DNA from: an uncultured Thermoprotei archaeon
GTDB lineage: Archaea > Thermoproteota > Thermoprotei > Thermofilales > B15-G2
Direction of reading: 5' to 3'
DNA length: 64,000 nucleotides
Assembly (NCBI GenBank): GCA_965367815.1
Contig: CBDUKN010000012.1
Coordinates: 1 to 64,000, forward strand
Shown here: positions 1 to 25,819 of the stretch, piece by piece
Layout: each line of letters begins with the position of its first letter
How positions within the stretch are numbered: the stretch's first letter is position 1
Notes under the pieces: model-generated
Told to the model about the DNA's origin: nothing
The model's input: only the letters and a program-made list of their open reading frames with translations
Databases searched by the model: none
Made by a program: the position numbers and the translations under genes

Positions 1-3000
1 TCCACTTTCTTTCAAGCGACGGTGTTACGTAGCCAGAAGCCTTTACTGCAGGATATATTCCAGCTATTACTACCGCCGTCATTGAGAAAAGAATCGATAG
101 TGCAGGATAAGGCGAAGAGAAATCTACTGGATACATTCCTGGATAAACTAGTGACATTATGTGGCCGAGAACCAGTGCTATTAAGTAGCCTATAGCAGCT
201 CCTAATACTGCATAAACAAAGCCTTCTGAAAATATCATGAGAGCTACATGCATTGGTGATAGCCCGAGAACACTATATATCTTTATTTCTCTCAGTCTTT
301 CATATACAGCTGCTATCATTACATTGAGAAGCGATAACATTACTACGAGCAAAGGTATACTTATTTGACCTAATCCCTTAAGCTCATATCCTCTAATCCA
401 TCTAGAGAGAAATGTTTGTTTGCCATTAGAGTGATACACTGCAAGATAGCTTAAGTGCTCTGATATATCCTTGGCACCCTTCTCTACTACGTTAAGGTTA
501 GGTGACACTACTGCTACTGAAACAACATAGCCTCCTACGCGTATCGCTAAGCCATAGGGTATTATAATTAAGTGATCTTTAGCCTTAATAGGTGCTCCAG
601 GAGGAGCTTCTGGATCTCTCGGCGTAATATAGTCTCCATCTATATCTTGCAGATATATTTTGGCTTCTTTTACTTTAATTACTTTAACTACAGTTAGCTT
701 TATTCCGGCTACATAAATACAGCTTCCAGGCTTTAAGCTTAATTCTTTTGCTAAATCTTCTGTAACTATAGCGGAGAACATTAACCCTCTCCACTCTAAG
801 TCTTTTAAAATATCCTTAAGTAGAGGCTCTTTTGCACAAACCCCTACTACTGCTTTAGCAAATCCTAGCTCTTTTTTCTCATTCATAACGCAAATCCATC
901 CTTCTCTAGTAGGTACACGTAACCATACTCTTGGACAGATTTCTCCTTTTCCTTTAAAGTAACCAGTAAGGTATTCTAGGAGAGAAGGAGATATGGACAT
1001 TTCCTCGCCAGCTTTAATTAATATACCTTGATATGGATAAGACGGCTTAACTGGCAGTTTCTGAGTCTTATAGAAGTCACCGAATGTCCATGAAGTAAAC
1101 AGAACTAGCGATAGCACTAGACAAATCACAGAAGATAATGTAAGAGCTGTTCTTAAAGGTCTTTTCTTGAGATTTCCGACGCCTACTGACAAAGCAGCAG
1201 ACATTATTGAAAACCTTGAAACATCTATGAAATGTTCTCCAATAATTTTACGTTTAATTTCCTTAGCGAAAGAAATTACCCCATTTATAATAAACCCTAA
1301 GACAGGCAAAGTAAGTATAAATGAGAATATGCTTAGGGAGGCCATAATGGAGTTCCAGGCTATTCTGAGACCTGGATGAAGTACATATGATAAAGCTATG
1401 AGAACTGCTAGCACACCTAAGATACAGAATATTCTCTGTAAGCCGTGTTTCTCGAAAACTAAGCGTTCAATAACTAATGCCATAGGAATAAGCAGAAGTA
1501 TCAGCATTACGTTCGTATATACTATGTTCACGTATACCTCGCGTGCGATAATGTAAGCTTTTCTAGCTAAATCCCATGATCTGTACATAAGCGCATAAGC
1601 CTCAGTAAATGCTCCTTTCTTAAGTAGCTCGCAGGCTCTGTTATACAAGCTTAGTGCTTCACTATAGTAATTTACAGCTCTTCCAATAGATCCAGCTAAA
1701 GTCGCCTCGTTTTTCATTACATTAAGCCTTTCGCCTGCAAGTTTAATCATTTCAGTAGCGTATTTGATTGCAGTAATACTTATATCTAAGTACTCTCCTT
1801 CAGCGACTTCAAGTCCCTTTAATATACCTATAGGAGCTTCTTCTACAACACTCTTAAATACTATATCTACCGGAGTATCTGGTGGAACGAAAATTACTGC
1901 ATCATATCCTATAGCAGGATCTCCTATGCCTAGTGAAATCATTCTCGCTGTTAAAAGAGGACTTGGGGGAGTCGATATAATGTATCCATAGTCAAGGAGC
2001 TGAGCTCTGCTCCTAGCATCATAAATTATAAAGAACATAGGTTCCATTCGAGCAACTAAAGGTGTTGCAAGCGTAGTGGGATCTATCATGTCGTGAAGAA
2101 CTATTGTACCGCATCTGAACAAAACTATATTAACTGGTATTCTACCGGAAGCCTCATCTTCCGAACGAAGTGTGAATAGCGGGCCAAATGGCCATAGTTT
2201 TCTACCATAATAACCGTGATCAGGTGCCCAAACTATATTCCCTGTGTTATTGTTTATGACGAAAGCCCATATTTGGTACTCAAATGCTCCTAAAGCCCAT
2301 CCCGAAGGCTTAAGTCCAGGTATCTCAAAGTCCCCTGTTTCATTAGCGATCGTTATAAAGAAATGCCTGTATACTCCTATTGTATGCATTCTAACATAAA
2401 TTATAATAAATTCGTTCTTTTTAATCACTTTACTCCAGCAATTATCATACCATGCTTTAGAATAATTGTAGTAGCGAACCTTTCCCCTTAATAGAGCGAA
2501 GCCTACAGGAGCTGTACGAGAATGCCCGTGCATTATGTCTCTAAGCATAGGACTTACTGTAGCTCTTGGATCAGAGAGGATGAGGTAAATTAGGCCGCAG
2601 AAAAACTCTGCCTGAGGCTTAATATTATTAAAGTTCACTTTATCAAAAGTATCGCATGAAGTTTCCCAAATTATTCTAGCAGCATGTGCTGTATAAAATG
2701 TTAAAGAAAATATTGGAACATGCAAAAATACTTCTCCAACATGATTTACCTGAGATGGCAATCCTTCTCTATCGAAACTTGATATAGCAAAGTAAACTGT
2801 ATAGTTTCTCCCAGCTAAATGATATGTTCTTGTAGTTAAATCATATACACCTCCGGCTCTTCTAATAGACTCTATGTTATAGTCTTTTAAATATGACTCT
2901 ATAGCGTAAATGTTTGTTGCTGCTCTATGCTCTATATCTAGTCCTCCATAAAAAGTGCCTAAAGTAGTTAAAGTAATTGCAGGAGAATCTGAAGAAAAGC

Positions 3001-4087
3001 AAGGTACAAATACTGCAACTGTTTGGTTCCCCGAAATGGCTATTAAACCTTTACTCCCGTTGAATATTGCTGGCTTGTCGTTATCCCAGTGCTTGAAAAA
3101 CAGATATTCTGCAAAGTGTCTTGCTCCCGCCATTCCTATAGCTGCTCCTGAGAAGAAAGCTAGCAATACATTTCTCTTCGGCCTATGCTCTTTAAGAATA
3201 CGGGCAAACTCTAAGAGAACTGCTGCACTGCATGCTTCATCTGCTGCAGGAGTGAGACCGGGAACTACACCATAAGCATCGAAAAGACAGGCAAGCATAA
3301 TTACATAGGGTTCATTCAAAGTCCCCGGAATCCACGCAAAAATATTCCCAAGAACTACTTTCCTCCAGTACATTTTAACTTCAAGTCGTGCAATAACATC
3401 TACACTTTTAGCCTCTGCATCTCTTAGTAAGTGAATCAGCTCTTTTGCATCAGTGTACCTTATTATAACTCTAGGAAACTTTATTGGCACTTCTAACACT
3501 TTATAGTCACCTTCGCCTCTAACAGTATATAAAGGCTCAATAAATACTACAGCCTTAGCTCCAAGATTAAGTGCATACATCCAATTAGCTCTACTATTGT
3601 AATTCATTACTACTATGCTACCAGTAATATTCTTTCCCTCAAAATCCTTTACATTGCCCTCGCCTACGTAAACCACTTTACCTTCATATACTCCAGTACA
3701 CGTCTGAACAAGATTAGGGAATAAAGCATATACTCTAAAGACTCTTTTTACCGGCGATAATATCACTAGAGTAGAGTTAGCATCGTATGGCACTACAGCC
3801 TCATATGTCCATATCCAGGTATTAAGACCTAAGTCTTCTGACAGAAACTTATAAATATATTCGGCTGCCTTCTCATAGCCCTCATAGCCAGTAAATCTAC
3901 TGCCAAAACTGGATAAAGCCTTAACATGTTTTTTAATGTTATCCATATTAAGTGACTCTATAGCTAACTTAGCCGCCTCTTGAGGATCCCATGTAATTGA
4001 CGTAGAATCTGCCCTGATCGCCTGAATTATAATTGGAAGCATTACTAGTAATGCAATTAGTCCTGCAACAAGCTTGCCCTTAAACAT
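1..4087 (-). CDS. Large membrane protein: signal peptide + PA domain/M28-like (probably inactive) domain + MacB/FtsX-type permease; 3' end runs off the window
   Basis: Not in the ORF track (no stop in the window). Hand translation from ATG 4087: MFKGKLVAGLIALLVMLPIIIQAIRA...GSRFTGYEGYEKAAEYI...VIMLACLFDAYGVVPGLTPAADEACSAAVLLEFAR...LKKRPLRTALT...VTPSLERKW (same frame at 2-4). Colinear with the 18651..22883 protein. Not every codon was checked. Confidence 0.9.
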   Translation of the reverse strand, partial: MFKGKLVAGLIALLVMLPIIIQAIRADSTSITWDPQEAAKLAIESLNMDNIKKHVKALSSFGSRFTGYEGYEKAAEYIYKFLSEDLGLNTWIWTYEAVVPYDANSTLVILSPVKRVFRVYALFPNLVQTCTGVYEGKVVYVGEGNVKDFEGKNITGSIVVMNYNSRANWMYALNLGAKAVVFIEPLYTVRGEGDYKVLEVPIKFPRVIIRYTDAKELIHLLRDAEAKSVDVIARLEVKMYWRKVVLGNIFAWIPGTLNEPYVIMLACLFDAYGVVPGLTPAADEACSAAVLLEFARILKEHRPKRNVLLAFFSGAAIGMAGARHFAEYLFFKHWDNDKPAIFNGSKGLIAISGNQTVAVFVPCFSSDSPAITLTTLGTFYGGLDIEHRAATNIYAIESYLKDYNIESIRRAGGVYDLTTRTYHLAGRNYTVYFAISSFDREGLPSQVNHVGEVFLHVPIFSLTFYTAHAARIIWETSCDTFDKVNFNNIKPQAEFFCGLIYLILSDPRATVSPMLRDIMHGHSRTAPVGFALLRGKVRYYNYSKAWYDNCWSKVIKKNEFIIIYVRMHTIGVYRHFFITIANETGDFEIPGLKPSGWALGAFEYQIWAFVINNNTGNIVWAPDHGYYGRKLWPFGPLFTLRSEDEASGRIPVNIVLFRCGTIVLHDMIDPTTLATPLVARMEPMFFIIYDARSRAQLLDYGYIISTPPSPLLTARMISLGIGDPAIGYDAVIFVPPDTPVDIVFKSVVEEAPIGILKGLEVAEGEYLDISITAIKYATEMIKLAGERLNVMKNEATLAGSIGRAVNYYSEALSLYNRACELLKKGAFTEAYALMYRSWDLARKAYIIAREVYVNIVYTNVMLILLLIPMALVIERLVFEKHGLQRIFCILGVLAVLIALSYVLHPGLRIAWNSIMASLSIFSFILTLPVLGFIINGVISFAKEIKRKIIGEHFIDVSRFSIMSAALSVGVGNLKKRPLRTALTLSSVICLVLSLVLFTSWTFGDFYKTQKLPVKPSYPYQGILIKAGEEMSISPSLLEYLTGYFKGKGEICPRVWLRVPTREGWICVMNEKKELGFAKAVVGVCAKEPLLKDILKDLEWRGLMFSAIVTEDLAKELSLKPGSCIYVAGIKLTVVKVIKVKEAKIYLQDIDGDYITPRDPEAPPGAPIKAKDHLIIIPYGLAIRVGGYVVSVAVVSPNLNVVEKGAKDISEHLSYLAVYHSNGKQTFLSRWIRGYELKGLGQISIPLLVVMLSLLNVMIAAVYERLREIKIYSVLGLSPMHVALMIFSEGFVYAVLGAAIGYLIALVLGHIMSLVYPGMYPVDFSSPYPALSILFSMTAVVIAGIYPAVKASGYVTPSLERKW

Positions 4088-4243
4088 CCAAGATCCCTCA
4101 AGAGTAAAAATCACCACCGCATATATATATATTTTTCTTTCAATAGTTAATAAAACTGCTTGTTTTTTAAAAAAATTTTTAAAATAACTCATTTTTATCT
4201 ACTCATAAATAATGTTCTAAAAAATAGAAGTAAAATTATTTGC

Positions 4244-6310
4244 TTAGATGGGTAGTACTCCTGCACCGTATCTTAGATACAGCACTATAGGCCAGCCTAA
4301 GCTCCAAGAGAGTAGTGAACCGAAGAACATTCCTACAGCAAAGGGCACAGCATAGTCGCTGTAAATCCTTGCACCTCCAATTTTAATTACAAGAAGCTTT
4401 GCTATGAAGGCTACTAATACTGATCCCCAAGCATAGAAGTTCAGTAGCGCCAGCATTGGGTATGCTATTGGGTTTATTATAAACCAAGCAAACCTTGTTC
4501 TTAAGAACATTAATACTGCGCCAACTATTATTCCTGTGAGAGTAGACCAAGCAAAGACAGGGTTAGGCGGCTCTTTAGCTCTTACTACATAGTTTCCAGC
4601 ACCTAACCCGTTGTTCAGAGCTCCGTCCCAGCTGGTAGTCCAGCCGTGAGCCCAGTTGCGCATACCTTGAAGACCTATAGTGTACCAGCCTATTACTACT
4701 GAAAGTATAGCTGTAAGTATGACTATAGGGAACTGTATTTTAAATACTTCTTTGGGATCAGTTTTAGTTTCACGAGCTATTTTGTAGCTGAAGATAGCTG
4801 GTACTAAAGATGAGTGAGGCTGGTAGCAGGTGGCATTTGAGACAATGTATGCTAGTCCATAGCCTGTTGTAGAGGCGTTTCCTGCTAGAGCACTTGATAC
4901 GTAATAAGCAAAGTGCCTGTCGGGTCCTTGTAATCTAAAGCCCCATGGATCGAAGATATCGCTAGTCCAGGCTTCTCCACTAAATCTTAGTACAGCGAAC
5001 CATACTACAAGTATATATAGTATTCCTAGAAATGAAGCTACTGGATGTATTTGGCTAGCACACATCCAGAGGAAGAGTAATATTGTTCCTCCTAGGAAAA
5101 TTAGCCATGCTACACGAGGTGGTACAGGCTCATCTTTTTCAGGAGCCTCGCCTCTCATAAATCTCTTAAAGGATGAAATCCAGTAATCTCTTGTATACCA
5201 AATTAAGTATAAGGCAATGCCGAAGGTCATGCAGTTTAAAGCCCAGTTATATGTTCCAGCTAAACCTAAGTCTGACTTGTAGTATGTTCCCCACATAGCG
5301 CCCCATTCACTAGTAGGGCTTGATGGATATACTCCTGTTGCAACAAAGACTGCTGGTACTATTACTTGGAATATGAAGTAGAAGAGAACTCCTGTAAAGA
5401 GTATGTCTATTGAGAATAAGAAACATAGACCTACTTGCGCAGGTGTGGGACTGAATGAGTCGAGTACAGATCTCTGGAAAGGCGGATACTTGCCCTGTAG
5501 ATCAACGTCAGGTATAACGAAGGGCGGGTGTTTCCATATTGATAGGAAGCCACCCCAATACTGGAAGTGGAATAAATCGTAGAGTACTGCAAGAATGAAA
5601 CCTATCCAGAACAGTAGTGCTTTCTTGCTGAAGAGAAGCCTTCTCTTAGCTCCCTCTACTGCAGGTGATGAAACATAGTTTATCATGGTAAGTGTCGTTA
5701 TTGTAACTGGATAAGGTAACTTCTCTACGTCGATAAATCTCTTCATGAATATTAGTGCTAATCCATAAAGCATTACATTGAAGAATATATAATAGAGAAC
5801 CCATGTAACGATAGGCACGGTCCAGGCATCAGCATAGGGAATAGTCCACTGGAATGGGTTTCTAGACTCCCAGAACGCAGAGAGTATTGTATAGTCTCTC
5901 GGCACCCAGTTGCTAGGGATGAACTCTATTAAATGCTTGTATTTTTCCGTACCTAGCATTGTATTCATACACCAAGCCCATATTCCCCACCAAAATGTGC
6001 TGGGTACGACTACAGATGCTACTGCATACACTATGGTCCACTCTTGCTTAGTTAGTGAAAGTTTCCTTGAGGCGAATGAGAGTAGTGCAATTATGAACAT
6101 TAATGGAAATAGTATTGTTTCCCATCCAAAGTACCATTTCCATCCAAAGTATACTAGGTAGTGGGTGAACCAGTATGGTGCTCCTGCGACGCTGGGGTGG
6201 AAGCTGTAGAAGAATATTGCGTAAGTCAATATTATTATTATTGCGGACAGTGTGAGTGACTTGGGAGTAATTCCTTTGGCTACAGCCTCGCTTTTAGCTT
6301 CAGTAGACAT
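4244..6310 (-). CDS. DUF6785/DUF6784-family polytopic membrane protein (OPT-like putative transporter)
   Basis: Many hydrophobic helices; family-type motifs LTKQEWTIVY, PSNWVP, WTVPIVTW, RFIDVEKLPYP, RTRFAWFIINPIAY, GGARIY..VPFAVG. ATG 6310 (MSTEAK) is more plausible than the track start at 6400. Confidence 0.8.
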   Translation of the reverse strand: MSTEAKSEAVAKGITPKSLTLSAIIIILTYAIFFYSFHPSVAGAPYWFTHYLVYFGWKWYFGWETILFPLMFIIALLSFASRKLSLTKQEWTIVYAVASVVVPSTFWWGIWAWCMNTMLGTEKYKHLIEFIPSNWVPRDYTILSAFWESRNPFQWTIPYADAWTVPIVTWVLYYIFFNVMLYGLALIFMKRFIDVEKLPYPVTITTLTMINYVSSPAVEGAKRRLLFSKKALLFWIGFILAVLYDLFHFQYWGGFLSIWKHPPFVIPDVDLQGKYPPFQRSVLDSFSPTPAQVGLCFLFSIDILFTGVLFYFIFQVIVPAVFVATGVYPSSPTSEWGAMWGTYYKSDLGLAGTYNWALNCMTFGIALYLIWYTRDYWISSFKRFMRGEAPEKDEPVPPRVAWLIFLGGTILLFLWMCASQIHPVASFLGILYILVVWFAVLRFSGEAWTSDIFDPWGFRLQGPDRHFAYYVSSALAGNASTTGYGLAYIVSNATCYQPHSSLVPAIFSYKIARETKTDPKEVFKIQFPIVILTAILSVVIGWYTIGLQGMRNWAHGWTTSWDGALNNGLGAGNYVVRAKEPPNPVFAWSTLTGIIVGAVLMFLRTRFAWFIINPIAYPMLALLNFYAWGSVLVAFIAKLLVIKIGGARIYSDYAVPFAVGMFFGSLLSWSLGWPIVLYLRYGAGVLPI

Positions 6311-6599
6311 GTTATAAACACTGCGTCTCGATATAAATACATTAGAGAAAAGTTTAAAAAGCTTCAAGATTTTTTTCATAATGAAAAAATTTATTTTCAA
6401 AGTAAAATGGCTCTGTACTTACGGAAAATGCTCTATTTCTAGATAAACTGGGGGTAGATATTCTTACTGATACATAATTAAACTCTAGTTCTGGCGGCTA
6501 AAGCACATCATGTATTAGATAAACTAATGCCTTAGTATTCTCAATGTATTAAATAATATTAAAAGTATTGAGGCTAAATTTTTAGCTAGTGATAAATTG

Positions 6600-6710
6600 T
6601 TATTTATTTGCTTTATGTGAATATTTTCGTTTGATGAAGTAGACTGCTCCTATGCATAGGGCTATGATTGCTACCTGGAATATTACTAGAGGTGTGTAGT
6701 CAGCGAAGTT
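6600..6710 (-). pseudogene. 3' remnant of a membrane-anchored surface protein
   Basis: Reads NFADYTPLVIFQVAIIALCIGAVYFIKRKYSHKANK*: TM helix plus basic tail, no start. Confidence 0.5.
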
Positions 6711-6849
6711 ATATCAGTGAAACTTACTGACTATGCTAAGGAAGGTGAAGCCGTAGTGGTGTATTTAAGTAATGAGGCTCAATGCATTTTCTAGGAGAGT
6801 ACAATAGTTGAAGAAACCTGCTTTTTAGAAGTGCGTGCATTAATGTGAC

Positions 6850-7432
6850 AATTTTAAAGCTAGACACTATTTACGCAAAGTGGAAAAGCAGTAATTATGT
6901 TTACGTGAAATCAGAGTATGATGTTGTAAAAAGTACTAGCTGGTATGATGAAAACTTTATAGCAGAAGTATCTGTTGAAAAGAAAATATTACAGTAGGTA
7001 ACTGCATTAAAGCATCGTTCCGTGGATGGGCTATTGGGGGAACTATTGTTTCTACTAAAAAACAATAGTTTTACAGTAACTAAGCCTACGGTAGTAGAAG
7101 CTCTATGGAGTAAGAAATATCGCGTTGAAATTGTTTCAAAGTACTCTGGTACTGAAGGCTCTGATTAAAATAAGGAAGGATTAATTGTAGTTATAGGATA
7201 AAAGATACTATCGCCGAAGAGACTTTTTTGTGCCATGTTTTCGCTGAATGATACGATGAGAGAAGGCACTTAATCTTTAGTCGCTAAAATAAAGGTAAGC
7301 GGCTCTATGGCCATAGTAGCTAAATGGAGAACAGAGCCTACTTTTTTAACATATGCTATTATCGCGGCATTAGCTATAATCATTTTATGTGCACTATTGC
7401 TCATTATAAGGAAAACTAGGGCATCAAAGTAA
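6850..7432 (+). pseudogene. Decayed 3' part of a repeat-containing cell-surface protein
   Basis: Fragments YVYVKSEYDVVKSTSWYDE, SFTVTKPTVVEALWSKKYRVEIVSKY and GSMAIVAKWRTEPTFLTYAIIAALAIIILCALLLIIRKTRASK*, separated by stops and frameshifts. Confidence 0.65.
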
Positions 7433-7453
7433 ATCTAATTATTTATTTTTATT

Positions 7454-8245
7454 TTATATGAAGATTATTATTCTGAAGTTTAGCCATAGTGCTATTGCTG
7501 CCATGAATGCTGTTAGCCATACTATTTTGTTCCAGTTGAATATTTTATATCCGTCTAGTATTCCTAGCGGCAGTAGATTGAATAGAGCGAAGTCGGCGTT
7601 TATTACTGCGAAGAAGTAAGTGAAGAATGGTAGTATTCTAAGCGAAGCGAGTATTAGGCCTATTATACTCATTACTATGTTTGAGAGTGGGCCTGCTAAA
7701 GCAATAGCTCCTATTTTTGCTCTATCTCCTCCGTAGACAGCGACGTAGCCTGGTGCTATTATTTTAATGGGAAGTAGCGCTGATATAGCTGTTAGCAGGA
7801 GTCCTTGGTAAGAGGCGACGAATCTGGCTCGGTATCCGTAGTTTATGGCTGTGTAGCGGTGGGCTAGTTCGTGTACGAGGAAAGCCAGCAGTACTCCTGT
7901 TAGTACTGATAGGAAGTGTATTGGTCTGAGTAGTGCTGAGAGAGAGGTATATGCGAGTGTTACAGCGAGTACTGCTAAAAGGAGGTCTCTTGTTTCTCCT
8001 GGAGAAAACCAGTGGACTCGGATTAGAGGCCTTGATGGCTTTATTTTAATTTCTTCTGGTCTCCTTATCCTGTACTCTGTAGCATACTTGTCTGGAAGCT
8101 CTACTACTCTCCATTCTCCTCGCTTTAAGCCTGGGCACTCGTGGTTTTCGGGCAAATGGTGCTCTACACAGAATAGTCCTCCACAGTATTTGCATTTAAA
8201 TGGAAGACCGTCTATGTGTTTTCCGCAGTACTCGCACTTAACCGT
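7454..8245 (-). CDS. AN1-type zinc finger fused to M50 (site-2) intramembrane metalloprotease
   Basis: HELAH, AGPLSN and FNLLPLGILDG M50 motifs. The frame extends upstream of the track start as VKCEYCGKHIDGLPFKCKYCGGLFCVEHHLPENHECP (AN1 pattern). Confidence 0.85.
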   Translation of the reverse strand, partial: TVKCEYCGKHIDGLPFKCKYCGGLFCVEHHLPENHECPGLKRGEWRVVELPDKYATEYRIRRPEEIKIKPSRPLIRVHWFSPGETRDLLLAVLAVTLAYTSLSALLRPIHFLSVLTGVLLAFLVHELAHRYTAINYGYRARFVASYQGLLLTAISALLPIKIIAPGYVAVYGGDRAKIGAIALAGPLSNIVMSIIGLILASLRILPFFTYFFAVINADFALFNLLPLGILDGYKIFNWNKIVWLTAFMAAIALWLNFRIIIFI

Positions 8246-8295
8246 AACTATCCCCCTATGTTACTGTCTGCTAGACTATAATATTTTCTGCGCTT

Positions 8296-9327
8296 TCAAA
8301 TCATGTTGTTTATTTTTTCTTTAAGTTCACTCAGTATTTCAATAGTTTCTGTGGAGAAATAGTAGCCTTCGCCACTTAGATCTACTGCTCTCATATAATT
8401 GCAGAAAAACGAAAACGTCGTGGGATCATTTAGAGTCTCGACTAGTTTCTGTTTTCCTAGAGTAGTCTCTATTTTAAGGCTCATATCGAGTCCAACAGTG
8501 TATACTGGACCTATGTTTGAGTAAAGTTCGTTGAGAACATTTTTACCTGCGTATGCCTTAATTATTCCTGTCTCTACTTTCCGGTACTCTTCTTTAATAC
8601 TCTCTTTGAGAGCTAAATATTTCTCGAACGCTAAGTAAGGTGAAGCTACTAGTGAAGCTATTCCTTCGCCCATTACTTCAAGCAGTATTTCGTAGACATT
8701 TCTCATGTTAATTAATCCTTTTCGAGTAAGCCTCCAGTAAATTTCTCTACCATAATGGCCGAGAGCCTTGTGGTGTAGCTCATGTGCCAGTACAGCTGAT
8801 AATTTGTTTAAGTTCCCCAAGAAATGTGTTATGTTCATTACTACTGCTAGAGTATCTATTAAGTTCACTCCATAAGCGTCACTTCCACCTACAACGAAGT
8901 AGATTTTTGCTTCTACTTCAGTATTCTTCGGCAAATACTCTGATGCTCTTCTACAGGCTTCTCTCAGTATCTCGTTTTTATTTTCATCTATTTTCTTTAC
9001 TAAACTATAATATTCTTCTTTATTTTCTAAACACTTTTTATACTCATTATATATTGAAGATAACTTGCCTTCAACTTCTTTTCCCTCAGAAAGAGCTTTC
9101 ATTACTTTAAAAATATCGCCTGTACTCAAATCATGCGCGAAAAGCATATATCTATAAGGCTTTGTATTTAAGACATTTTTAAGAGCTTTATCCCATTCTC
9201 TGCCTTTTTCGACGAGTTCTAAGACACGTAGCATTTTCTTTGCAGGTGTAGTGTCTAGCGATAAGTACCATAGCATATTATCATTAATACTTAGTGGGAA
9301 CACCAATATAAGTTGTTTTGAAAACAC
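8296..9327 (-). CDS. Putative Zn-dependent protease (DUF5700/DUF2268-like zincin)
   Basis: LAHELHH (HExxH) with downstream EGIA motif. Confidence 0.65.
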   Translation of the reverse strand: MFSKQLILVFPLSINDNMLWYLSLDTTPAKKMLRVLELVEKGREWDKALKNVLNTKPYRYMLFAHDLSTGDIFKVMKALSEGKEVEGKLSSIYNEYKKCLENKEEYYSLVKKIDENKNEILREACRRASEYLPKNTEVEAKIYFVVGGSDAYGVNLIDTLAVVMNITHFLGNLNKLSAVLAHELHHKALGHYGREIYWRLTRKGLINMRNVYEILLEVMGEGIASLVASPYLAFEKYLALKESIKEEYRKVETGIIKAYAGKNVLNELYSNIGPVYTVGLDMSLKIETTLGKQKLVETLNDPTTFSFFCNYMRAVDLSGEGYYFSTETIEILSELKEKINNMI

Positions 9328-18650: not shown

Positions 18651-21600
18651 ATGAAGTATCTCAGAGTAATCAGTATTATTGTTTTTCTACTAGCTTTAAA
18701 TTTTATCTTAGTAAGAATAAATGTTGTTACTGCTTCTGAAAATAATTCATACAGTTTCTACTTCAGGTATATCGTATCAAATATTAATTTAAATAATTTG
18801 AATAAGCATCTGTCTTGCATTATGTCTGCTGTAGACCGCTATGCTGGTTATTCTGGCTGCTATGAGACAGCATCCTATATTTGTAGCTATCTTAAGTCTT
18901 TAGGTCTTAAGACATGGATTCAAAACTACACTGCTATAGTTCCCTACGACAGTAATTCTACTTTAGTTGTCGTCGAGCCTCGTAGAGAAGTTTTCAGAGT
19001 ATATGTCTTCGCGCCGAATTTGGTGTATACTTGTAGAGAGAGAATTCGCGGAGAGCTAGTTTACTTGAATAGAAGTTTTCTTGAAACAACACGTATAGGT
19101 AATATTAAGGGTAAGATAGTTTTAGTTGATCTCGACTGCGGCTACGACTGGATTTACTTAAAGTTTCTTGGAGTAAAGGCAATAGTTTTTATTGAAAAGA
19201 GGGTGAGTGCTGAGGAATGGTTAAGTAAGGTAGTTTGTGCTCCGCTTAAAGTACCGAGAGTGCTTATTAAGGAGAGTGATGCTGAAAAGCTTCTTAGTTT
19301 ACTTAAAGAAGGTAGAGTTACTGTAGAGCTTTTCTTGAATATGGAGTGGAGAGAAGTAGTGTTACAAAATGTTTTTGCTCTTATTCCAGGCTCTGTTGAC
19401 GAGAAAAATACTGTAGTTGTTTCAGTGCAGTACGATGCTTGCTCAGTTGTACCTTCTATTTCGCCGGGAGCTAGCAGTGCTTTAAGTACTGCGGCTCTCC
19501 TTGAGTTTGCGCGAATACTTAAGGGAAATAGACCCGCAAGAACTGTTTTGCTGGCTTTCTTCTCGGGCTCTGCTTTAAGTATGCTTGGTGCGCGAACTTG
19601 GTTCTATTCGCCGGAGTTTAATGCTCTGCTTGAGGAAGGATATAGGCCTAGAGTAGCTTTTGTTCTAGATTTATCGGGAGAATCTAGCCAGATACGTGTA
19701 CTTATTCAAGGCCTTCTTTATGGTACATACGATTTACATAGATCTCCTTTGCTTAAAGCTTTTGATAGTCTATTAAACTATATAGCTACTATAGGAAACT
19801 ATGACAAGTATACGAAGAAATACACTGTACTCGGTAAAAAATACTCTGTGGTTATAGCTCCATCATACTACTATGCAAAACAGAAAAATATTATTTTGAA
19901 ATATGCTTCTTGCCGCCATTTAGGCGAAGTATTTAATATCGAAGGAATACCTGCTTTGACGTTTTATTCACCTAAAAGCAGCTATGGTACTCCATTAGAT
20001 GTTTTAGGCAAAATTGATTTAACTAAAGTGAGGCCTCAACTTGAAGTATCATTTTACATAATCTTCTCTCTTGTAAATGATTTAAGTGAAAAATCTTCGA
20101 GAGTATTTAGTCATACAGTTTTCTCACGATGGTGTATGTCTACAGTTAAAGGTAAAATTCAGCCTCACATCAACAGCTCATCGACTCTAATCATCGTGAC
20201 AGATTACTTAAACAACCTTTTCGTATACAAAGTAAGTAAAGAAGGATTTTTTGAAATCTATGGCCTGAGATCGTCTTCATGGGGTGTAGGTTTTCATGTA
20301 TACAGACTTTATGCCTTCACTTTAAATTCCAGTAAGATAATCTATGCTTCCAAGGAAATACGAATAAGACTTCCCTTGGAAGTTTATTTAGGGAAAAGAG
20401 AAATTATATTAGAGTTAGTGCCCTGCAGCACACTCATAATAGAAGAGCCAGTACTTGATTTCCATACTTTTCGGGCTATTCAACTAGGTATAGAAATTTT
20501 TGAAAAAAGTAAAAATAAAATGGTAGATGCTCTAAATCTTTTTGAAGTATTTACAGGAAACAAATATACTCAAGTAGCTATTCTAATACTGCCTAGCAAT
20601 ACTTGCTTTGATATAGTGCTCAGAGATAAAATAACCAAAAAGCCTCTCGCTTTAGTTCCTAACATTATTTTAAGGACAGGAGAAGAAAAAAGTATTCCAA
20701 TATACCGGCTAGCAGAAGAAATTATTAAAGCAGCTAATAGTCTACTAAAGCCTTTAGCAGAAGACCCTACTCTATCCGGCTCACTGGGTTCCTCAAAAGA
20801 ATATTTTGAAAAAGCCTTAAAGGAACATGAAAAATACTCTAAGTATTTAAATGAAAAAACTTATAGCGAATATGTTTTTATAGCTTATCGTTCCCTTTAC
20901 TATGCTATAAAATCATATTATACTTTAGAAGAAGTATATATGAGTATTAGCAACATGAATATTGTTTTAGTATGTATTTTACTGCCGTTTTCTATAGTAC
21001 TATGCGAATTATTGTTTGAAGTACGAGGAACCAGAAAAATGCTGTATGTTCTAATTATTTCTGCTTCTACTGCAGCTGCTCTAATAGTACTTCATCCTGG
21101 CTTTAGAATACACTCCAATTTAGTACTATTGTTTGCTTCTTCGCTATCTTTATTTACTTCAATTTTATCTCTCTTATACTTAGTTTTTGAGAACTATAGT
21201 ACTTTAATTAAAATAAGAGAAAAACTTGCTGGTAAACACTTTATTGAAACAGCCTATAAAGGGATCTTCTTTGCATCATTCAGTCTTAGTGTAAGAAATA
21301 TGAAGAAGAGGCCTTTGAGAACAGCTCTTACTGCTTTAACAGTAGTTTTGCTAGTATCTTCAATTACATTAATTATTTCGTGGAGATTTCGCGATATTGT
21401 AGTATTTAAAAAGATAGAAGCACCTTCTCCGCTTTATGCGGGCTTTTTGGTGAAAGAGCCTATGATAGATGCCTTTGAAGGTATAAGAGCATACCCTATT
21501 CCTTCGCCTTTAGCTGAGTATATTGAGTGCGTTTTAGGCAATAGAGCTAGAATATATCCTAGGGCTAGAATAGGGGGCTCTGTAGTATTTTTGGCTAAAA

Positions 21601-22883
21601 GCACGGGTAGAAAGATTGATGTTCTTGGAGGAGTTATAGGGCTTAAAAGCGACGATCCTATTTTACAGAACCTTTTCGTGGGTATGCTTCCTGAAGGATC
21701 TCACACGGTGTTCATTTCAAGATCTCTACAGGAAGCACTAAAGGTAAGTATTGGAGATGTAGTTACTATTAATGGTGAAGATTTTGTTGTCATAGGAGTT
21801 TTCTCTGATGATGCATTTGCCCGACTATATGATATTGATGGCTACTTACTTACACCAGTTTTCATTACTCGGTCGGGTATCATTCAGGAAAAAAGTTTTG
21901 TCGCAATAGTACCCTACGATACTTTATTGAAGCTAGGGGGAGGCATTTCCTCTATTCTTGTAGTACCGGAGAGAAGTGAAGAAGAGTTAATGGAAGATGT
22001 TATGGAAATTTCTCAGCAAATAAGTGGACTTTACCATATTTACTACAGTGACGGTGAAGAATGCTGGGAGCTAATTCCTATTAAAGGCTACGAGCTTCAG
22101 GGACTTGAAAATATTTTAGTGCCTTTAATAATTTCATGCTTAGTTTTATCAAACACTATACTTGGGTCAACCTTTGAGAGAAGAAGAGAGTACACAATAT
22201 GTTCTTCCTTGGGGCTTTCGCCTAGCGGAGTTGCTTTTATGGCTTTAAGCGAAGGCTTAGTGTACTCAGTAGTAGGAGTTATGTTAGGCTACATTACGGC
22301 GGCATGCGTTAGCCTAGTTGCGAGAATCTTCGGGTACAGTCTTCCACTAGACGTTTCTTCACCCTATCTTCCTCTAGCCATAATTTTCTCTATTGCTGCT
22401 ACACTGGCTTCAAGCGTCTATCCCGCTCTCTCGGTCTTCAAGACTATTACGCCTTCACTTAAAAGAAAATGGGAGATAACAACTAAGCCTCTCGGCAATG
22501 AGTGGTATATTCCATTACCTTTCAGAGTAGGTAGTAGAGAAGAGTGTTTAGGAGTACTCAATTATTTAGCTGAGTACTTCGAGAAAGTTTATACAAGAGA
22601 CTTTATTGTCGTAGAGAAACCAGTACTGAAAACTAAAGACAGTTCATTAGTATTGGCTTTAACTATACAGCTAGCTCCCTACGACGCAGGAATATCAGAG
22701 TACGTTGAAGTAATAGGTAGACAGGAGAAAGACAAAATAGTTTTCGGAGTACTATCCGTACTCAAAACAGGTAAACGCTACATATGGGTAAGCTCCCATA
22801 AGAGGTTTATAGACCACTTAAGAAAACAACTATTACTTTGGCGTACATTAAAGCCTAAAGAGAGATTAAAGTATATGAAATAG
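18651..22883 (+). CDS. Signal peptide + PA/M28-like (probably inactive) domain + MacB/FtsX-type permease, 1410 aa
   Basis: DRYAGYSGC, KGKIVLV, VQYDAC, AALLEFAR, RNMKKRPLRTALT, ERRREYTICSSLGLSP, TPSLKRKW, RKQLLLWR. Confidence 0.9.
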   Translation: MKYLRVISIIVFLLALNFILVRINVVTASENNSYSFYFRYIVSNINLNNLNKHLSCIMSAVDRYAGYSGCYETASYICSYLKSLGLKTWIQNYTAIVPYDSNSTLVVVEPRREVFRVYVFAPNLVYTCRERIRGELVYLNRSFLETTRIGNIKGKIVLVDLDCGYDWIYLKFLGVKAIVFIEKRVSAEEWLSKVVCAPLKVPRVLIKESDAEKLLSLLKEGRVTVELFLNMEWREVVLQNVFALIPGSVDEKNTVVVSVQYDACSVVPSISPGASSALSTAALLEFARILKGNRPARTVLLAFFSGSALSMLGARTWFYSPEFNALLEEGYRPRVAFVLDLSGESSQIRVLIQGLLYGTYDLHRSPLLKAFDSLLNYIATIGNYDKYTKKYTVLGKKYSVVIAPSYYYAKQKNIILKYASCRHLGEVFNIEGIPALTFYSPKSSYGTPLDVLGKIDLTKVRPQLEVSFYIIFSLVNDLSEKSSRVFSHTVFSRWCMSTVKGKIQPHINSSSTLIIVTDYLNNLFVYKVSKEGFFEIYGLRSSSWGVGFHVYRLYAFTLNSSKIIYASKEIRIRLPLEVYLGKREIILELVPCSTLIIEEPVLDFHTFRAIQLGIEIFEKSKNKMVDALNLFEVFTGNKYTQVAILILPSNTCFDIVLRDKITKKPLALVPNIILRTGEEKSIPIYRLAEEIIKAANSLLKPLAEDPTLSGSLGSSKEYFEKALKEHEKYSKYLNEKTYSEYVFIAYRSLYYAIKSYYTLEEVYMSISNMNIVLVCILLPFSIVLCELLFEVRGTRKMLYVLIISASTAAALIVLHPGFRIHSNLVLLFASSLSLFTSILSLLYLVFENYSTLIKIREKLAGKHFIETAYKGIFFASFSLSVRNMKKRPLRTALTALTVVLLVSSITLIISWRFRDIVVFKKIEAPSPLYAGFLVKEPMIDAFEGIRAYPIPSPLAEYIECVLGNRARIYPRARIGGSVVFLAKSTGRKIDVLGGVIGLKSDDPILQNLFVGMLPEGSHTVFISRSLQEALKVSIGDVVTINGEDFVVIGVFSDDAFARLYDIDGYLLTPVFITRSGIIQEKSFVAIVPYDTLLKLGGGISSILVVPERSEEELMEDVMEISQQISGLYHIYYSDGEECWELIPIKGYELQGLENILVPLIISCLVLSNTILGSTFERRREYTICSSLGLSPSGVAFMALSEGLVYSVVGVMLGYITAACVSLVARIFGYSLPLDVSSPYLPLAIIFSIAATLASSVYPALSVFKTITPSLKRKWEITTKPLGNEWYIPLPFRVGSREECLGVLNYLAEYFEKVYTRDFIVVEKPVLKTKDSSLVLALTIQLAPYDAGISEYVEVIGRQEKDKIVFGVLSVLKTGKRYIWVSSHKRFIDHLRKQLLLWRTLKPKERLKYMK

Positions 22884-22906: not shown

Positions 22907-25819
22907 TTATTTTAAGCTTCCAGAACATATTTCTAGACATGTTTTTCTTATATCGTCTATTAAGTGGTAGAGTTCTTCTTTATATTTGTAGGTTTTTGCG
23001 AGAGACTTTACTTTAAGCTTTAAAGTATAATAGTCTCTGTCGAGTTTTTTCTCGAAAATAAAGTCTACTTGAACTACTTGTGCGAAAAGTACTCCACTAG
23101 TAAAGCTTATTTTATAAGATATTTTCTTGACTACACTGTCTGTGGTTTTTTCTTCACTAATTTTCTCTTCTTCTATTCTAGTTAAACCATAGTAAGAGTA
23201 CTTAGACTTTATTTTACTGCATATACTCGATATGATTATATTTGCTTTACTTACAGGTATTTTGAAAGGCAGAGTCTCTTCGTAGACACCTTTCTTGAAC
23301 TTTAGTTTCCATTTTCTCATAAAGCTTGGGACTACTTTTAGTGAAGCTCTGCGAGCCGGAATAGTGGTTGAAGCTAGGCACACAGCTATTACTGTAGTTA
23401 GTGCTGTAACAGACCACACTGGAATAATGTTTACTGAGTAACTTGAGTAAACTGTTTTGAGAATAAGTACTGTTAATACGCTAGCTATGTAGCCTAAGCC
23501 TCCTCCACTAAAAGCTAGAATAATGGACTGTGTTAAGAAAATTAAGGCTACTTAGAGGGGATTTATTCCGATGGCAGTATATATTTCTATTTCACGAGAC
23601 CTATCATAGACTTCAGCTAGCATTAAGTTGATTACTATTAGAGATCCTATAGCCAGCAGTATTAGTGTTTCAGCACCCTTAATATTAAAGGAATGGCTTC
23701 TTGAAATAATGTATGCTTCGCCTCCAAGACAAACAAAAGGCACTACACGCGGAGGAAGCACTGGAAGAAGCCGTGAAGCTACTTCAAGAGCCTCTTCAGC
23801 ACTCTTAGTCACTATAATCACTTTATCAATATAGCATACGTCAAGTTTTTTCGCGAAGTTTTCATGGACAATAAGTACTCCCTCAGGGCTAGTAGCTCTT
23901 GAATCTACAGTAATTGTTCCACAGCTAAACTTATTCCATGGCCTAAGAATCATTCCATCAAGATCTTTTACCTGCGCATAAAGTCTCTCATCAAAAATAC
24001 CGACTACTTTTAATTCATAGCCTTTAAACTTAATAACATCACCTACTTTAAGACCAAGTCTCTTAGCATAAGATAAACTAACTAGAACACCGTAAGTATC
24101 ATTGTCTCGCAGAAACCTACCCTTAACAACAATTTTAGGCAAAATAGTCAGCTTTTCTTCAAGAGAAGGCACAATACCTAAAACACCTCTAACCTTAACA
24201 CAGCGACTACCCCTACACAGTAGACACAAGTACCCTTCCCAGTCCCTTACACGGTCTATGTAGCAGTAAGCACTAGGCTTAAGGCTCATAACTCTATAGA
24301 CTACAGTATAGTTTCTCGCAACAAACTCCACTGCCTTAAACACAACGATTTTCTCATAGTCCTTTAAGTACCTCAAGTGAAGAACAACACCCGTCGAAAC
24401 AGCATTAGTATCAAAGCCTACAAGACTCCTGAAATTAAATACTACCACTGAAATAGAAGAAAACAATACTAAAGAAAACACCATAGCAGCAACACTAAAC
24501 AAAAACAGCGTAGATCTAAACCTCCTCCTACGAATATTCCTTAAACTAACCTCAAAAGCAAGTACTGCAAGCCTTCCTTCAAGTCGAGAAGAGATCTTGA
24601 ATAAAAGAATTGAAACAATGAGTGCTAAGCTTAAGGAAATAATAAGGAATTCTTGAAATGATACTTTAGGAAGAACTTGAGTCTTAAATCCAGGATGAGT
24701 TAAATGAAGTAAAAACATGATCGCTGTAAAACAGCTTATAGAAACAATAGTTCTTAATGCATGATTCTTACTACTTAAAATAAAACCTGATACAATTAGA
24801 CAGAAAATCATAATAATTATTGTTACAATGACATTAGTTACAGGTAAGCTCTCTATATAGAGCATTAAAATATATTTAACACTGTTTAAATCATTTAATA
24901 TAACGTTATATTTAAATGACAGCTCATTATAGTCTCTAAACAATAGGTACTCATATAGTTTACTGAGCAAGTGACTACACTTATCTAAAGTAACATTAAC
25001 TTCGCTTAGGACAATGCCTTCGTAAAAACCTTTGTTTAATAAACTCTTATATTCTGCTATTTCAAGTTGTTTTAAATAAATTAAATTTTTATAAAATTCA
25101 TATTTCTCCTCAAAAACAATACCTTTACCCATTTTTACGACATATCCTTTACCACAGTTAGTTAAAATAAAGTCCCCTACACGAATATAATACACTCCAA
25201 CAGCGTACATATTAAGCCATATAGGTTCTACTTCTCTCAGAGTTTTCGGATCAACAACATAAGGACTCTCAAGCCAACTAAAAATATGACCTACTCTCTT
25301 TAACACTAGTATTTTATATTTACTTTTATAAGATTCAATATATTCTGCAGAAAGCAAATCAATAAATGTTGTGTTCTTGAAGTCTTTAAAGGCAACAATA
25401 TATTTACCTTCTCTTGGAACACAGGCTATACCGCTACTATTAGTTAAAGAAAAAATAACTTCTCTAAATAGAGGACCAATACTGTAAAAATTAGTTGAAA
25501 AAACTACTGCACCACATATGGGTTTCTGTTGTTCATCTACAACTTTAACATAGATTTTTTCTCCAGGATACTCTCCAATACTATAGAAAATAAAATTTCT
25601 ATTTAAAACAGGTGTGTAAACATATTTTTTCCCTAAAACACTGATGGAAATATTTGCTTTTTTATATAGAAAGTCAGTACTAAAAATTATGCTGACTCTA
25701 TATGCTCCTTTATATCTGAAAATCTTAACAGTACTATTGGGTGCTATGCTGGGGTTAAGTTGGAGTGTGTGGCTGTTGGTTTTGTGAGATTTCGTGAACT
25801 GTATGATGAGAAAATTGAT
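22907..25819 (-). pseudogene. Third FtsX-type permease paralog with an in-frame TAA and no start codon at the 5' end of its frame
   Basis: Track ORFs 23552..25357 and 22907..23419 are one frame joined across TAA 23552-23554 (INPL*VALIFLTQSII...). The frame stays open to 25819 with no ATG/GTG/TTG upstream of 25357. Motifs RNIRRRRFRS, DLDG, DRSREIEIY. Confidence 0.75.

Follow-up and report, generated by a model that had tools for sequence, protein, structure and literature searches.

An OPT-like membrane protein and an FtsX-type giant with a dead peptidase head belong to a widespread gene module of Thermoproteota, probably served by an unlinked ABC engine

Two membrane protein genes at the start of the contig

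The window analysed here is a stretch of 64,000 nucleotides from an uncultured Thermoprotei archaeon (assembly GCA_965367815.1), namely the first 64 kb of contig CBDUKN010000012.1 (contig C12; G000:C12:1-64000 in our numbering) of a 2.45 Mb genome in 37 contigs. Our subject is the pair of membrane protein genes at its left end, referred to as gene A, or UP, and gene B, or the giant. The two long open reading frames (ORFs) lie head to tail on the (-) strand, at 4244..6400 and then at 2..4192. The ORF of gene A encodes at most 718 residues, and a start at 6310 gives 688, in agreement with the lengths of its orthologues (678-690 residues). Gene B runs for 1397 residues and is open at its 3' end; because the window begins at the contig end, the gene is truncated. 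As set out below, the pair constitutes the first two genes of a widespread, undescribed three-gene module, UP-giant-DOWN, in which DOWN is a second gene resembling the oligopeptide transporters (OPT); here DOWN and the tail of the giant lie beyond the contig end. The features of the two genes, in the direction of transcription, are listed here, with TM denoting a transmembrane segment and AF2 an AlphaFold2 model.

4244..6310, (-): gene A (UP), polytopic membrane protein with DUF6785 and DUF6784; 688 residues, likely start ATG at 6310, ORF open to 6400
4013..4087, (-): N-terminal hydrophobic segment of gene B (residues 36-60), putative signal peptide or membrane anchor; hydropathy and an AF2 helix at 35-62
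2528..3997, (-): extracytoplasmic protease-associated (PA) plus M28-like aminopeptidase fold (residues ~66-555), catalytically dead; Foldseek and alignment with YwaD
1778..2515, (-): beta-rich region (residues ~560-805); DSSP of the AF2 model, outside the M28 matches
1562..1774, (-): helical stalk (residues 807-877) leading to the membrane; AF2 helices 807-827, 837-858 and 862-877
1262..1540, (-): three extra TMs (residues ~885-977), absent from canonical MacB/FtsX permeases; hydropathy
1070..1261, (-): cytoplasmic loop with a conserved N-[LM]-[KR]-[KR]-R-x-x-R-T motif, and MacB-type TM1 (residues 978-1041); hydropathy and MacB alignment from residue 270
377..1069, (-): extracytoplasmic domain between TM1 and TM2 (residues 1042-1272), perhaps like the MacB periplasmic domain; profile alignment
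29..376, (-): FtsX domain with TM2, coupling helix (YERLREIKIYSVLGLSP), TM3 and TM4 (residues 1273-1388); Pfam FtsX and alignment with MacB 5lil
2..25, (-): TPSLERKW junction (residues 1390-1397), the last residues before the contig end; conserved in 45 aligned giants

An initial annotation, made by a model from the sequence, had placed a membrane gene of roughly 690 residues upstream of, and co-oriented with, a gene of more than 1360 residues. This arrangement is borne out (4244..6310, 688 residues; 2..4192, 1397 residues; both on the (-) strand). The families it named were also recovered, with Pfam profiles scoring above their cut-offs for DUF6785 and DUF6784 in gene A and for M28 and FtsX in gene B.

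Gene A is a divergent member of the OPT superfamily

In the Pfam search, gene A matched DUF6785 with an E-value of 7.4e-29 (101.1 bits, cut-off 25) and DUF6784 with 1e-10 (42.1 bits, cut-off 26.4). No match to the Pfam OPT family (PF03169) was found for gene A at E <= 0.1; one of its orthologues (P0007) has a precomputed PF03169 match. The AF2 model of gene A (predicted local distance difference test score, pLDDT, 87.1; predicted template-modelling score, pTM, 0.91) was compared with known structures using Foldseek, and matched the barley transporter HvYS1 (7wst, E 4.2e-9; 7wsr, E 8.3e-9) with template-modelling (TM) scores of 0.56-0.65 and a probability of 1.00. Two of the 500 matches listed had E <= 0.001, and all matches besides HvYS1 had TM scores of 0.19 or less.

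The second gene class of the module provides the other line of evidence. Aligned with hhalign, a profile of 80 DUF6785 proteins matched a set of nine DOWN-type proteins over 596 columns (probability 100%, E 1.9e-39), and one DOWN-type protein of this genome passes the Pfam OPT cut-off (60.7 bits against 25.8). Because of the fold match to HvYS1, the profile homology to the DOWN class and the DOWN member that passes Pfam OPT, we conclude that the DUF6785/DUF6784 family branches divergently from within the OPT superfamily and is a relative of transporters with the fold of OPT and yellow stripe-like (YSL) proteins. Other searches were uninformative: a sequence search of the PDB gave no match for gene A alone and only a designed channel (E 0.044) for the 80-sequence profile, and NCBIfam gave no match for UP or DOWN.

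The giant is a MacB-type permease unit carrying a pseudo-peptidase head

The hydropathy of gene B outlines its architecture, with an anchor at residues ~36-60, no further TM until ~885, TMs at 885-977, TM1 at 1013-1040, a hydrophilic stretch of 230 residues and the FtsX TMs at 1275-1385. Residues 1-878 gave an AF2 model with a pLDDT of 86.5. Within the head, Pfam Peptidase_M28 matched with an E-value of 4.5e-10 (40 bits, cut-off 21.3), covering positions 1-84 of the 193 in the profile. Foldseek ranked the aminopeptidase structure 2ek8 first (E 6e-24), followed by PaAP, BSAP, GCPII and the transferrin receptor, while the sequence search returned YwaD and 2ek8, in matches that include the PA insert, and weakly nicalin (E 0.37).

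Aligned with YwaD (6hc6), the head of gene B has Leu in place of a zinc-ligand His and Ala-Ala in place of the catalytic Glu-Glu pair; both Asp residues are kept. The Glu-Glu pair is absent from all 45 giants aligned, most of which have His-Tyr or His-Trp there, and because no giant has it we regard the head as a pseudo-peptidase throughout the family. These replacements make the head, like the transferrin receptor, more probably a binding protein than an enzyme. For the beta-rich region that follows, a feature search of the structure atlas gave no usable match.

The membrane part begins with the three extra TMs, for which no PDB match was found to the corresponding positions (1-118) of a chassis profile built from 36 sequences. 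The remainder of the chassis is recognisably a permease of type VII among the ATP-binding cassette (ABC) systems. Gene B matches Pfam FtsX with an E-value of 1.2e-11 (45.1 bits, cut-off 25.5), and the chassis profile matches MacB (E 1e-17) and aligns with residues 8-410 of 5xu1_M as one stretch. The outer-domain stretch of the profile aligned weakly with MacB 270-459 (E 0.025). Between TM2 and TM3 lies a coupling helix of the form Y-E-R-x-x-E-I...G-L-S-P, in which the E and R of the ER..EI motif are kept in 45 of 45 giants. We conclude that the giant is a complete MacB-type (type VII ABC) permease unit behind extra TMs, a stalk and an outward-facing head. The domain order proposed initially (signal peptide, PA/M28-like domain, beta-rich linker, TM bundle, MacB-like outer loop, FtsX TMs) thus stands as to anchor, head, beta-rich region, TMs, outer loop and FtsX part, with the qualifications that the gene is incomplete and that Pfam MacB_PCD was undetected in gene B at E <= 0.1.

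What is missing from gene B can be seen in its relatives. The orthologue in a genome of the same genus (G001:C124) is 90% identical over the last 214 residues and continues after TPSLERKW with a tail of 155 residues, followed by a gene for a protein of 653 residues. Full-length orthologues have 1527-1530 residues, so that a cytoplasmic tail of ~155 residues is missing here. The missing end was found on no other contig of this genome, and the tail had no match in Pfam or NCBIfam.

The genome also encodes five large proteins (1017-1319 residues) that have the chassis without an M28-like head, at C3:116339-119941, C3:130724-133777, C5:48649-51909, C7:57955-61071 and C20:33605-37564. Several of these stand beside UP-type genes. 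The chassis seems to carry varied outer modules.

UP, giant and DOWN are co-located and co-inherited

In the related genome G013 the order is UP (66% identical to gene A), giant (1530 residues, 62% identical) and DOWN (640 residues), G014 shows this order too, and in the same-genus genome G001 a second OPT-like gene likewise follows the giant. The present genome has eight giants with an M28-like head, eight UP-type genes, six DOWN-type genes and one small FtsX gene; four of the eight UP-type genes, on contigs C1, C5, C7 and C12, lie directly upstream of a giant.

To follow the association further afield, we scanned 185,579 species genomes with one peptide pattern, [IV][ED][VI]E[RK]LPFP, taken from an alignment of 12 sequences, a procedure which favours members that keep this loop. 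The scan gave 79 loci in other genomes, 78 of them with the focal UP gene, mostly in metagenome-assembled genomes labelled Bathyarchaeia, Thermoprotei, Brockarchaeota or Nitrososphaerota, together with one from Hydrogenedentes and one from Verrucomicrobiota. A giant was present within 7 kb of UP in 50 of the 78 loci and absent from five in which both flanks reached at least 7 kb; the other 23, with a short flank, were undecided. Because presence is easier to score than absence, the true share of UP loci with a giant lies somewhere between 64% and ~90%. In 28 of the 50 loci the giant shares the strand of UP and starts no more than ~2.5 kb downstream of it (three with DOWN between them), and the remaining 22 are arranged otherwise.

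The two genes have also diversified together. For 25 adjacent UP-giant pairs the Mantel Spearman correlation of their distances was 0.49, a value reached by none of 999 label permutations and to which shared species history contributes. Nearest neighbours agreed between UP and giant in 14 of the 25, and the UP and giant of the window have the same three nearest relatives. Co-location and joint inheritance of UP and giant thus extend over Thermoproteota and to some bacteria. The check on neighbourhood co-occurrence that had been suggested with the initial annotation therefore came out in its favour, both in other genomes (50 of 78) and in this one (four of eight); the two-protein unit that it envisaged is co-located as supposed and has to be enlarged to a trio, given the second OPT-like gene after the giant in G001, G013 and G014. 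No further recurrent partner emerged among the neighbours in 49 loci, where the commonest families occurred in nine, eight and seven; URO-D-like genes were present in nine of the 49 and Gfo/Idh/MocA oxidoreductase genes in eight.

Could the adjacency of two unrelated membrane proteins be incidental? Some DUF6785 genes do stand alone (the five clear cases, and one in genome G011). Yet the 50 co-located cases among the 78 loci come from two phyla of bacteria and several classes of archaea, the two proteins have diversified jointly, and this genome has four adjacent pairs; we consider an incidental adjacency highly improbable.

The arrangement is variable in detail. At one locus of genome G011 (G011:C31, L120), the gene orthologous to the window's giant precedes DOWN, another UP paralogue and a second giant that is frameshifted. 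The orthologue of the window's UP is on another contig (C17, L020), apart from that of the giant, and partners have therefore been reshuffled.

A small FtsX protein and two unlinked ATPases are candidates for the engine

MacB/FtsX (type VII ABC) permeases normally work with an ATPase, and the initial annotation had remarked that no ABC ATPase gene was visible. This is correct for contig C12, on which not one of the genome's 59 ABC_tran matches lies, and does not extend to the system as a whole, since candidate ATPases are encoded unlinked, on contigs C4 and C9, together with a small FtsX gene, and ATPases of this kind are clustered with the module in three other lineages. Each of the three canonical FtsX permeases of the genome (~400 residues) has its own ATPase adjacent. 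The C9 ATPase follows an FtsX protein of 223 residues with four TMs and no outer domain. The C4 ATPase (G000:C4:10320-11063) stands without an adjacent permease gene, and an FtsX-type gene within 6 kb was likewise lacking in all 14 relatives examined (L104-L117). The Walker A, Q-loop, LSGGQ, Walker B-Glu and H-loop motifs are intact in the C4 and in the C9 ATPase, and in NCBIfam the best match of both is LolD, followed by MacB, DevA and FtsE, all far below the equivalog cut-offs.

One line of evidence for a link between these ATPases and the giants comes from clustered loci. A type VII-type ATPase gene lies directly upstream of UP in two of the 50 giant loci, one from Bathyarchaeota (L024) and one from Verrucomicrobiota (L098). 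Compared with the C9 and C4 ATPases, the one in L024 shows 81% and 70% identity, respectively, and the one in L098 shows 58% and 61%. All six genes are together in L098, where the small FtsX gene and a C9-like ATPase gene are divergent from a C4-like ATPase gene, UP, giant and DOWN. In the complete genome G085, an operon of small FtsX and two ATPases abuts an operon of giant, UP and DOWN; G085, which has both sets, is the one genome of its family (f13) with either. Three other loci (L029, L030 and L035) have ABC genes 1.7 kb upstream of UP that go with a 12TM_1 permease and have no relation to the module.

The second line of evidence is the distribution of the genes among genomes. In a sample of 41 genomes from the order, the ATPases (at least 67% identity) were found in 24 of 25 genomes with giants as against one of 16 without, the exceptions being G019 (83% complete), with a giant only, and G002, with an ATPase only. 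The same nesting was seen in a sample of 151 genomes from the phylum, where 33 of 42 genomes with the ATPases had giants as against none of 109 without; the cut-offs here were E <= 1e-90 for the ATPases, E <= 1e-30 for the giants and E <= 1e-25 for the small FtsX, and were chosen after the order sample had been seen. The small FtsX was present in 39 genomes of the phylum sample, all among the 42 and always in single copy, compared with one to eight giants per genome. With the exception of one genome (83% complete), every giant-bearing genome of both samples has the unlinked set of small FtsX and two ATPases. Because related genomes are not independent, we treat this phyletic pattern as nesting and not as a statistic.

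The engine of the giants in this genome is thus probably unlinked, single and shared. For the window, the prediction is that one unlinked engine, encoded on contigs C9 and C4, serves all giants.

Proposed mechanism and alternatives

The results can be combined into the following scheme. Together, the ATPases encoded on C4 and C9 and the small FtsX would make up a common engine, able to dock on any giant present by way of its conserved coupling helix, engine and giant perhaps making an asymmetric pair in the manner of LolC/LolE. ATP hydrolysis in the cytoplasm would move the outer domain, stalk and head, following the idea of mechanotransmission put forward for type VII ABC systems in the abstracts surveyed. 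The dead peptidase head may bind cargo without cutting it and pass it to the flanking OPT-like permeases, UP and DOWN, which would carry it across the membrane. The likeliest cargo would be oligopeptide-like nutrients, taken up by a peptide-fermenting hydrothermal archaeon.

We put the probability of this explanation as a whole, comprising the three-gene module, the shared engine and the import of oligopeptide-like nutrients, at roughly 0.5. Its parts are not equally secure: the architecture with an engine encoded in trans is likely, whereas the direction of transport and the cargo are tentative. Import of peptides is preferred because the members of the OPT family are importers, the head is derived from an aminopeptidase, and the genes closest upstream of the pair encode proteins resembling peptidases (M50 and DUF5700). 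Given the OPT/YSL transporter fold of UP, a receptor-plus-permease unit, as had been suggested initially, is a reasonable inference, and co-location and co-diversification of the two genes agree with it; the suggestion needs amending in that the unit is a trio whose ATPase engine is probably encoded elsewhere. A bolder version, in which a small engine is time-shared by at least eight interchangeable giants and ATP-driven heads load the OPT pair, amounting to primary-active gating of secondary transporters with modular heads and hence to a hybrid transporter of a new class, strikes us as improbable.

Several points weigh against the scheme. The translation of gene A has neither the NPG nor the KIPPR motif named for OPT proteins in the available part of PMC3061005, the DUF6785 family consensus having NPxG and LKIGG in their place. 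UP-type proteins can work alone, since five DUF6785 genes clearly lack a giant, as does the G011 orthologue of gene A; conversely, the second giant of the window (18651..22883) is without an OPT-like neighbour. The ATPase link rests on the phyletic nesting of non-independent genomes together with three clustered loci, and the search for such an ATPase came back empty in G019, which has a giant and is 83% complete. The C4 ATPase lies within a block, conserved in all 14 relatives, that looks like housekeeping and consists of a divergent double-ABC gene (~610 residues), the ATPase and a THUMP gene; by its size, the double-ABC protein looks like ABCE1. Nine of the 42 phylum-sample genomes with the ATPases lack a giant, and the engine therefore has a giant-independent role; it could be older and wider in distribution than the giants. 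The presence of sugar-related neighbours (Gfo/Idh/MocA, GH57) leaves the peptide cargo in doubt. Finally, the known type VII ABC systems act outside the membrane, in extraction, efflux or enzyme activation, and none is known to feed an importer.

The last point leads to the principal alternative, namely that the ATP-driven giant serves extraction, export or envelope maintenance, in the manner of LolCDE, MacB, YbbAP-TesA or FtsEX. It would then extract a molecule, or present it on the outer face; this could be a surface protein, a component of the S-layer, or a compound that is hydrophobic or linked to a lipid. The role of the OPT-like proteins would be to flip or export the substrate, or no more than to scaffold the complex. 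In the surveyed abstracts every characterised type VII ABC system works in the envelope and none as an importer (PMC12646458 and other papers). An asymmetric engine like LolC/LolE would also suit such a task, as would a head resembling receptor-type pseudo-peptidases (the transferrin receptor and, in the weak match at E 0.37, nicalin), and the prokaryotic homologues of OPT proteins are described as biochemically uncharacterised in the part of PMC3061005 available. On the other hand, the characterised OPT/YSL members covered by the sources available to us import their substrates, eight diversified paralogous sets in a 2.4-Mb genome look more like a nutrient range than like one envelope task, and no envelope-biogenesis genes recur beside the module in the 49 loci. 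We therefore regard an envelope function as rather unlikely, though it is the strongest competitor of peptide import by an ATP-driven module.

A second alternative, which corresponds to the initial annotation, dispenses with the engine: the FtsX chassis would be a scaffold, perhaps regulated by the tail, in a receptor-plus-channel importer whose OPT-like protein is driven by an ion gradient. The lack of any ABC ATPase gene on contig C12 and the rarity of a type VII-type ATPase beside the module (L024 and L098 among 50 giant loci) would fit, and the conserved giant tail of ~155 residues could stand in for the ATPase input. Such an arrangement would leave unexplained why all 45 giants aligned keep the coupling-helix motif, why giants occur in none of the 109 phylum-sample genomes without LolD/MacB-type ATPases, and why these ATPases cluster with the module in L024, L098 and G085. 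An importer of this kind is accordingly quite unlikely.

The same ATP-driven machine might instead take up oligosaccharides or glycopeptides, the cargo favoured by the initial annotation. Gfo/Idh/MocA genes lie near the module in eight of 49 loci, and in G085 a GH57 glycoside hydrolase gene follows DOWN directly (L121, 7396-9924 (-)). A minority of the neighbours is related to sugars in this way, those next to the pair on the upstream side in the window resemble peptidases (M50, DUF5700), the head comes from an aminopeptidase fold, and in the part of the OPT literature surveyed no member with a sugar substrate was encountered. No result pointed to glycans specifically, and the OPT relationship and the aminopeptidase-derived head make peptides the more likely cargo. 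The sugar-related neighbours keep a glycan cargo for this machine in play, at low odds.

Relation to known systems

The closest known parallel is LolCDE, the type VII ABC lipoprotein extractor, in which two unlike FtsX-type permeases work with LolD ATPases. The giant shares with it the FtsX/MacB-type order of TM1, outer domain and TM2-4 and the ER..EI coupling helix; the putative engine, with a small and a giant FtsX protein, would be similarly asymmetric, and LolD is the best NCBIfam match of both ATPases. Unlike LolCDE, the archaeal system would use two different ATPases and a permease partner that has no ectodomain, its engine is unlinked from the giants in this genome, the giant has in addition a head of ~820 residues, three TMs and a cytoplasmic tail, and the module has two OPT-like partners. 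To our knowledge, the Lol pathway is absent from Archaea.

The permease part of the giant matches MacB by sequence and by profile, and is in this respect also like the permeases of MacAB-TolC, FtsEX-EnvC and YbbAP-TesA. In those systems, however, the outer partner (MacA/TolC, EnvC or TesA) is a separate protein, while the outer module of the giant is fused to it; nor do they have a partner resembling a secondary transporter, whereas the conserved partners in the module have the OPT fold.

Gene A is like the OPT/YSL transporters (PF03169, TC 2.A.67; HvYS1, 7wsr/7wst) in its fold, in full-length profile homology and in its size of ~650-700 residues. It differs in being 14-15% identical to HvYS1, in having no PF03169 match and in lacking NPG and KIPPR. 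We know of no OPT protein that works with an ABC-type partner.

Residues ~66-555 of the giant share the fold of the PA-domain M28 aminopeptidases, such as AM-1 of Aneurinibacillus (2ek8), PaAP of P. aeruginosa and YwaD/BSAP of B. subtilis, and of their receptor-type relatives GCPII and the transferrin receptor. What sets the giants apart is the replacement of Glu-Glu in all 45 aligned, to which gene B adds a replacement of the first His ligand. A peptidase-related soluble module is also tied to an OPT transporter in the fungal protein Ncr4, whose N-terminal region of 900 residues is related to S41 peptidases according to the available part of PMC3061005. As far as it is described there, Ncr4 differs in being a single-polypeptide fusion that lacks an ABC component and draws on another peptidase clan.

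Much is known about type VII ABC systems and about OPT transporters taken separately, but the literature searched, largely in the form of abstracts, contained no description of a joint FtsX-OPT system. The names DUF6785 and DUF6784 were likewise absent from it, in keeping with the earlier remark that no functional description of either family was known. An exhaustive search for the family at E <= 0.001 gave 482 clusters at 50% identity, all without described function. If the proposal is true, two Pfam DUFs would acquire a role, the occurrence of FtsX-type giants without an adjacent ATPase gene in many uncultured Thermoproteota would be accounted for, and a new way of coupling ATP to secondary transport would be added to those known. 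With eight sets in a 2.4-Mb genome, the module may be a main route of nutrient capture of these hydrothermal, probably peptide-fermenting archaea.

Surroundings of the locus

Two further features concern the expression of the pair.

6311..6345, (-): TTTATAT box (6337-6331) that may be an archaeal promoter of gene A; 21-27 nucleotides upstream of the ATG at 6310
4193..4243, (-): AT-rich spacer from the stop of gene A to the first ATG of gene B; 51 nucleotides, containing a run of six T

We tentatively read the TTTATAT box as an archaeal promoter from the spacing that is usual for archaeal TATA boxes; its position would fit a leaderless mRNA. A promoter scan of the sigma-70 type and a terminator scan of the locus gave nothing above their shuffles, and the terminator scan reported no terminator-like hairpin in the spacer 4193..4243. 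The spacer would be 156 nucleotides long if gene B starts at Met36 (position 4087).

Upstream of gene A, at 6400..7454, is ~1 kb of AT-rich DNA (GC content ~0.35) in which all ORFs are of 54 residues or fewer. This region contained no Rfam family, no tRNA and, in a six-frame search with hidden Markov models, no remnant of a module gene or ATPase. The next genes upstream, at 7454..9327 (-), encode a Peptidase_M50 protein (233 residues) and a DUF5700 putative zinc peptidase (343 residues).

The second giant of the window, at 18651..22883 (+), has 1410 residues with an M28-like head, an FtsX domain and a tail of ~146 residues, and stands without an OPT-like neighbour. Converging on it are two adjacent FtsX-chassis ORFs of 214 and 755 residues, at 22907..23551 (-) and 23552..25819 (-), which may be one split gene. 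Elsewhere in the genome a further DUF6785-type gene is cut at a contig end (G000:C19:1-1281 (-)), and several paralogous module loci seem to break the assembly.

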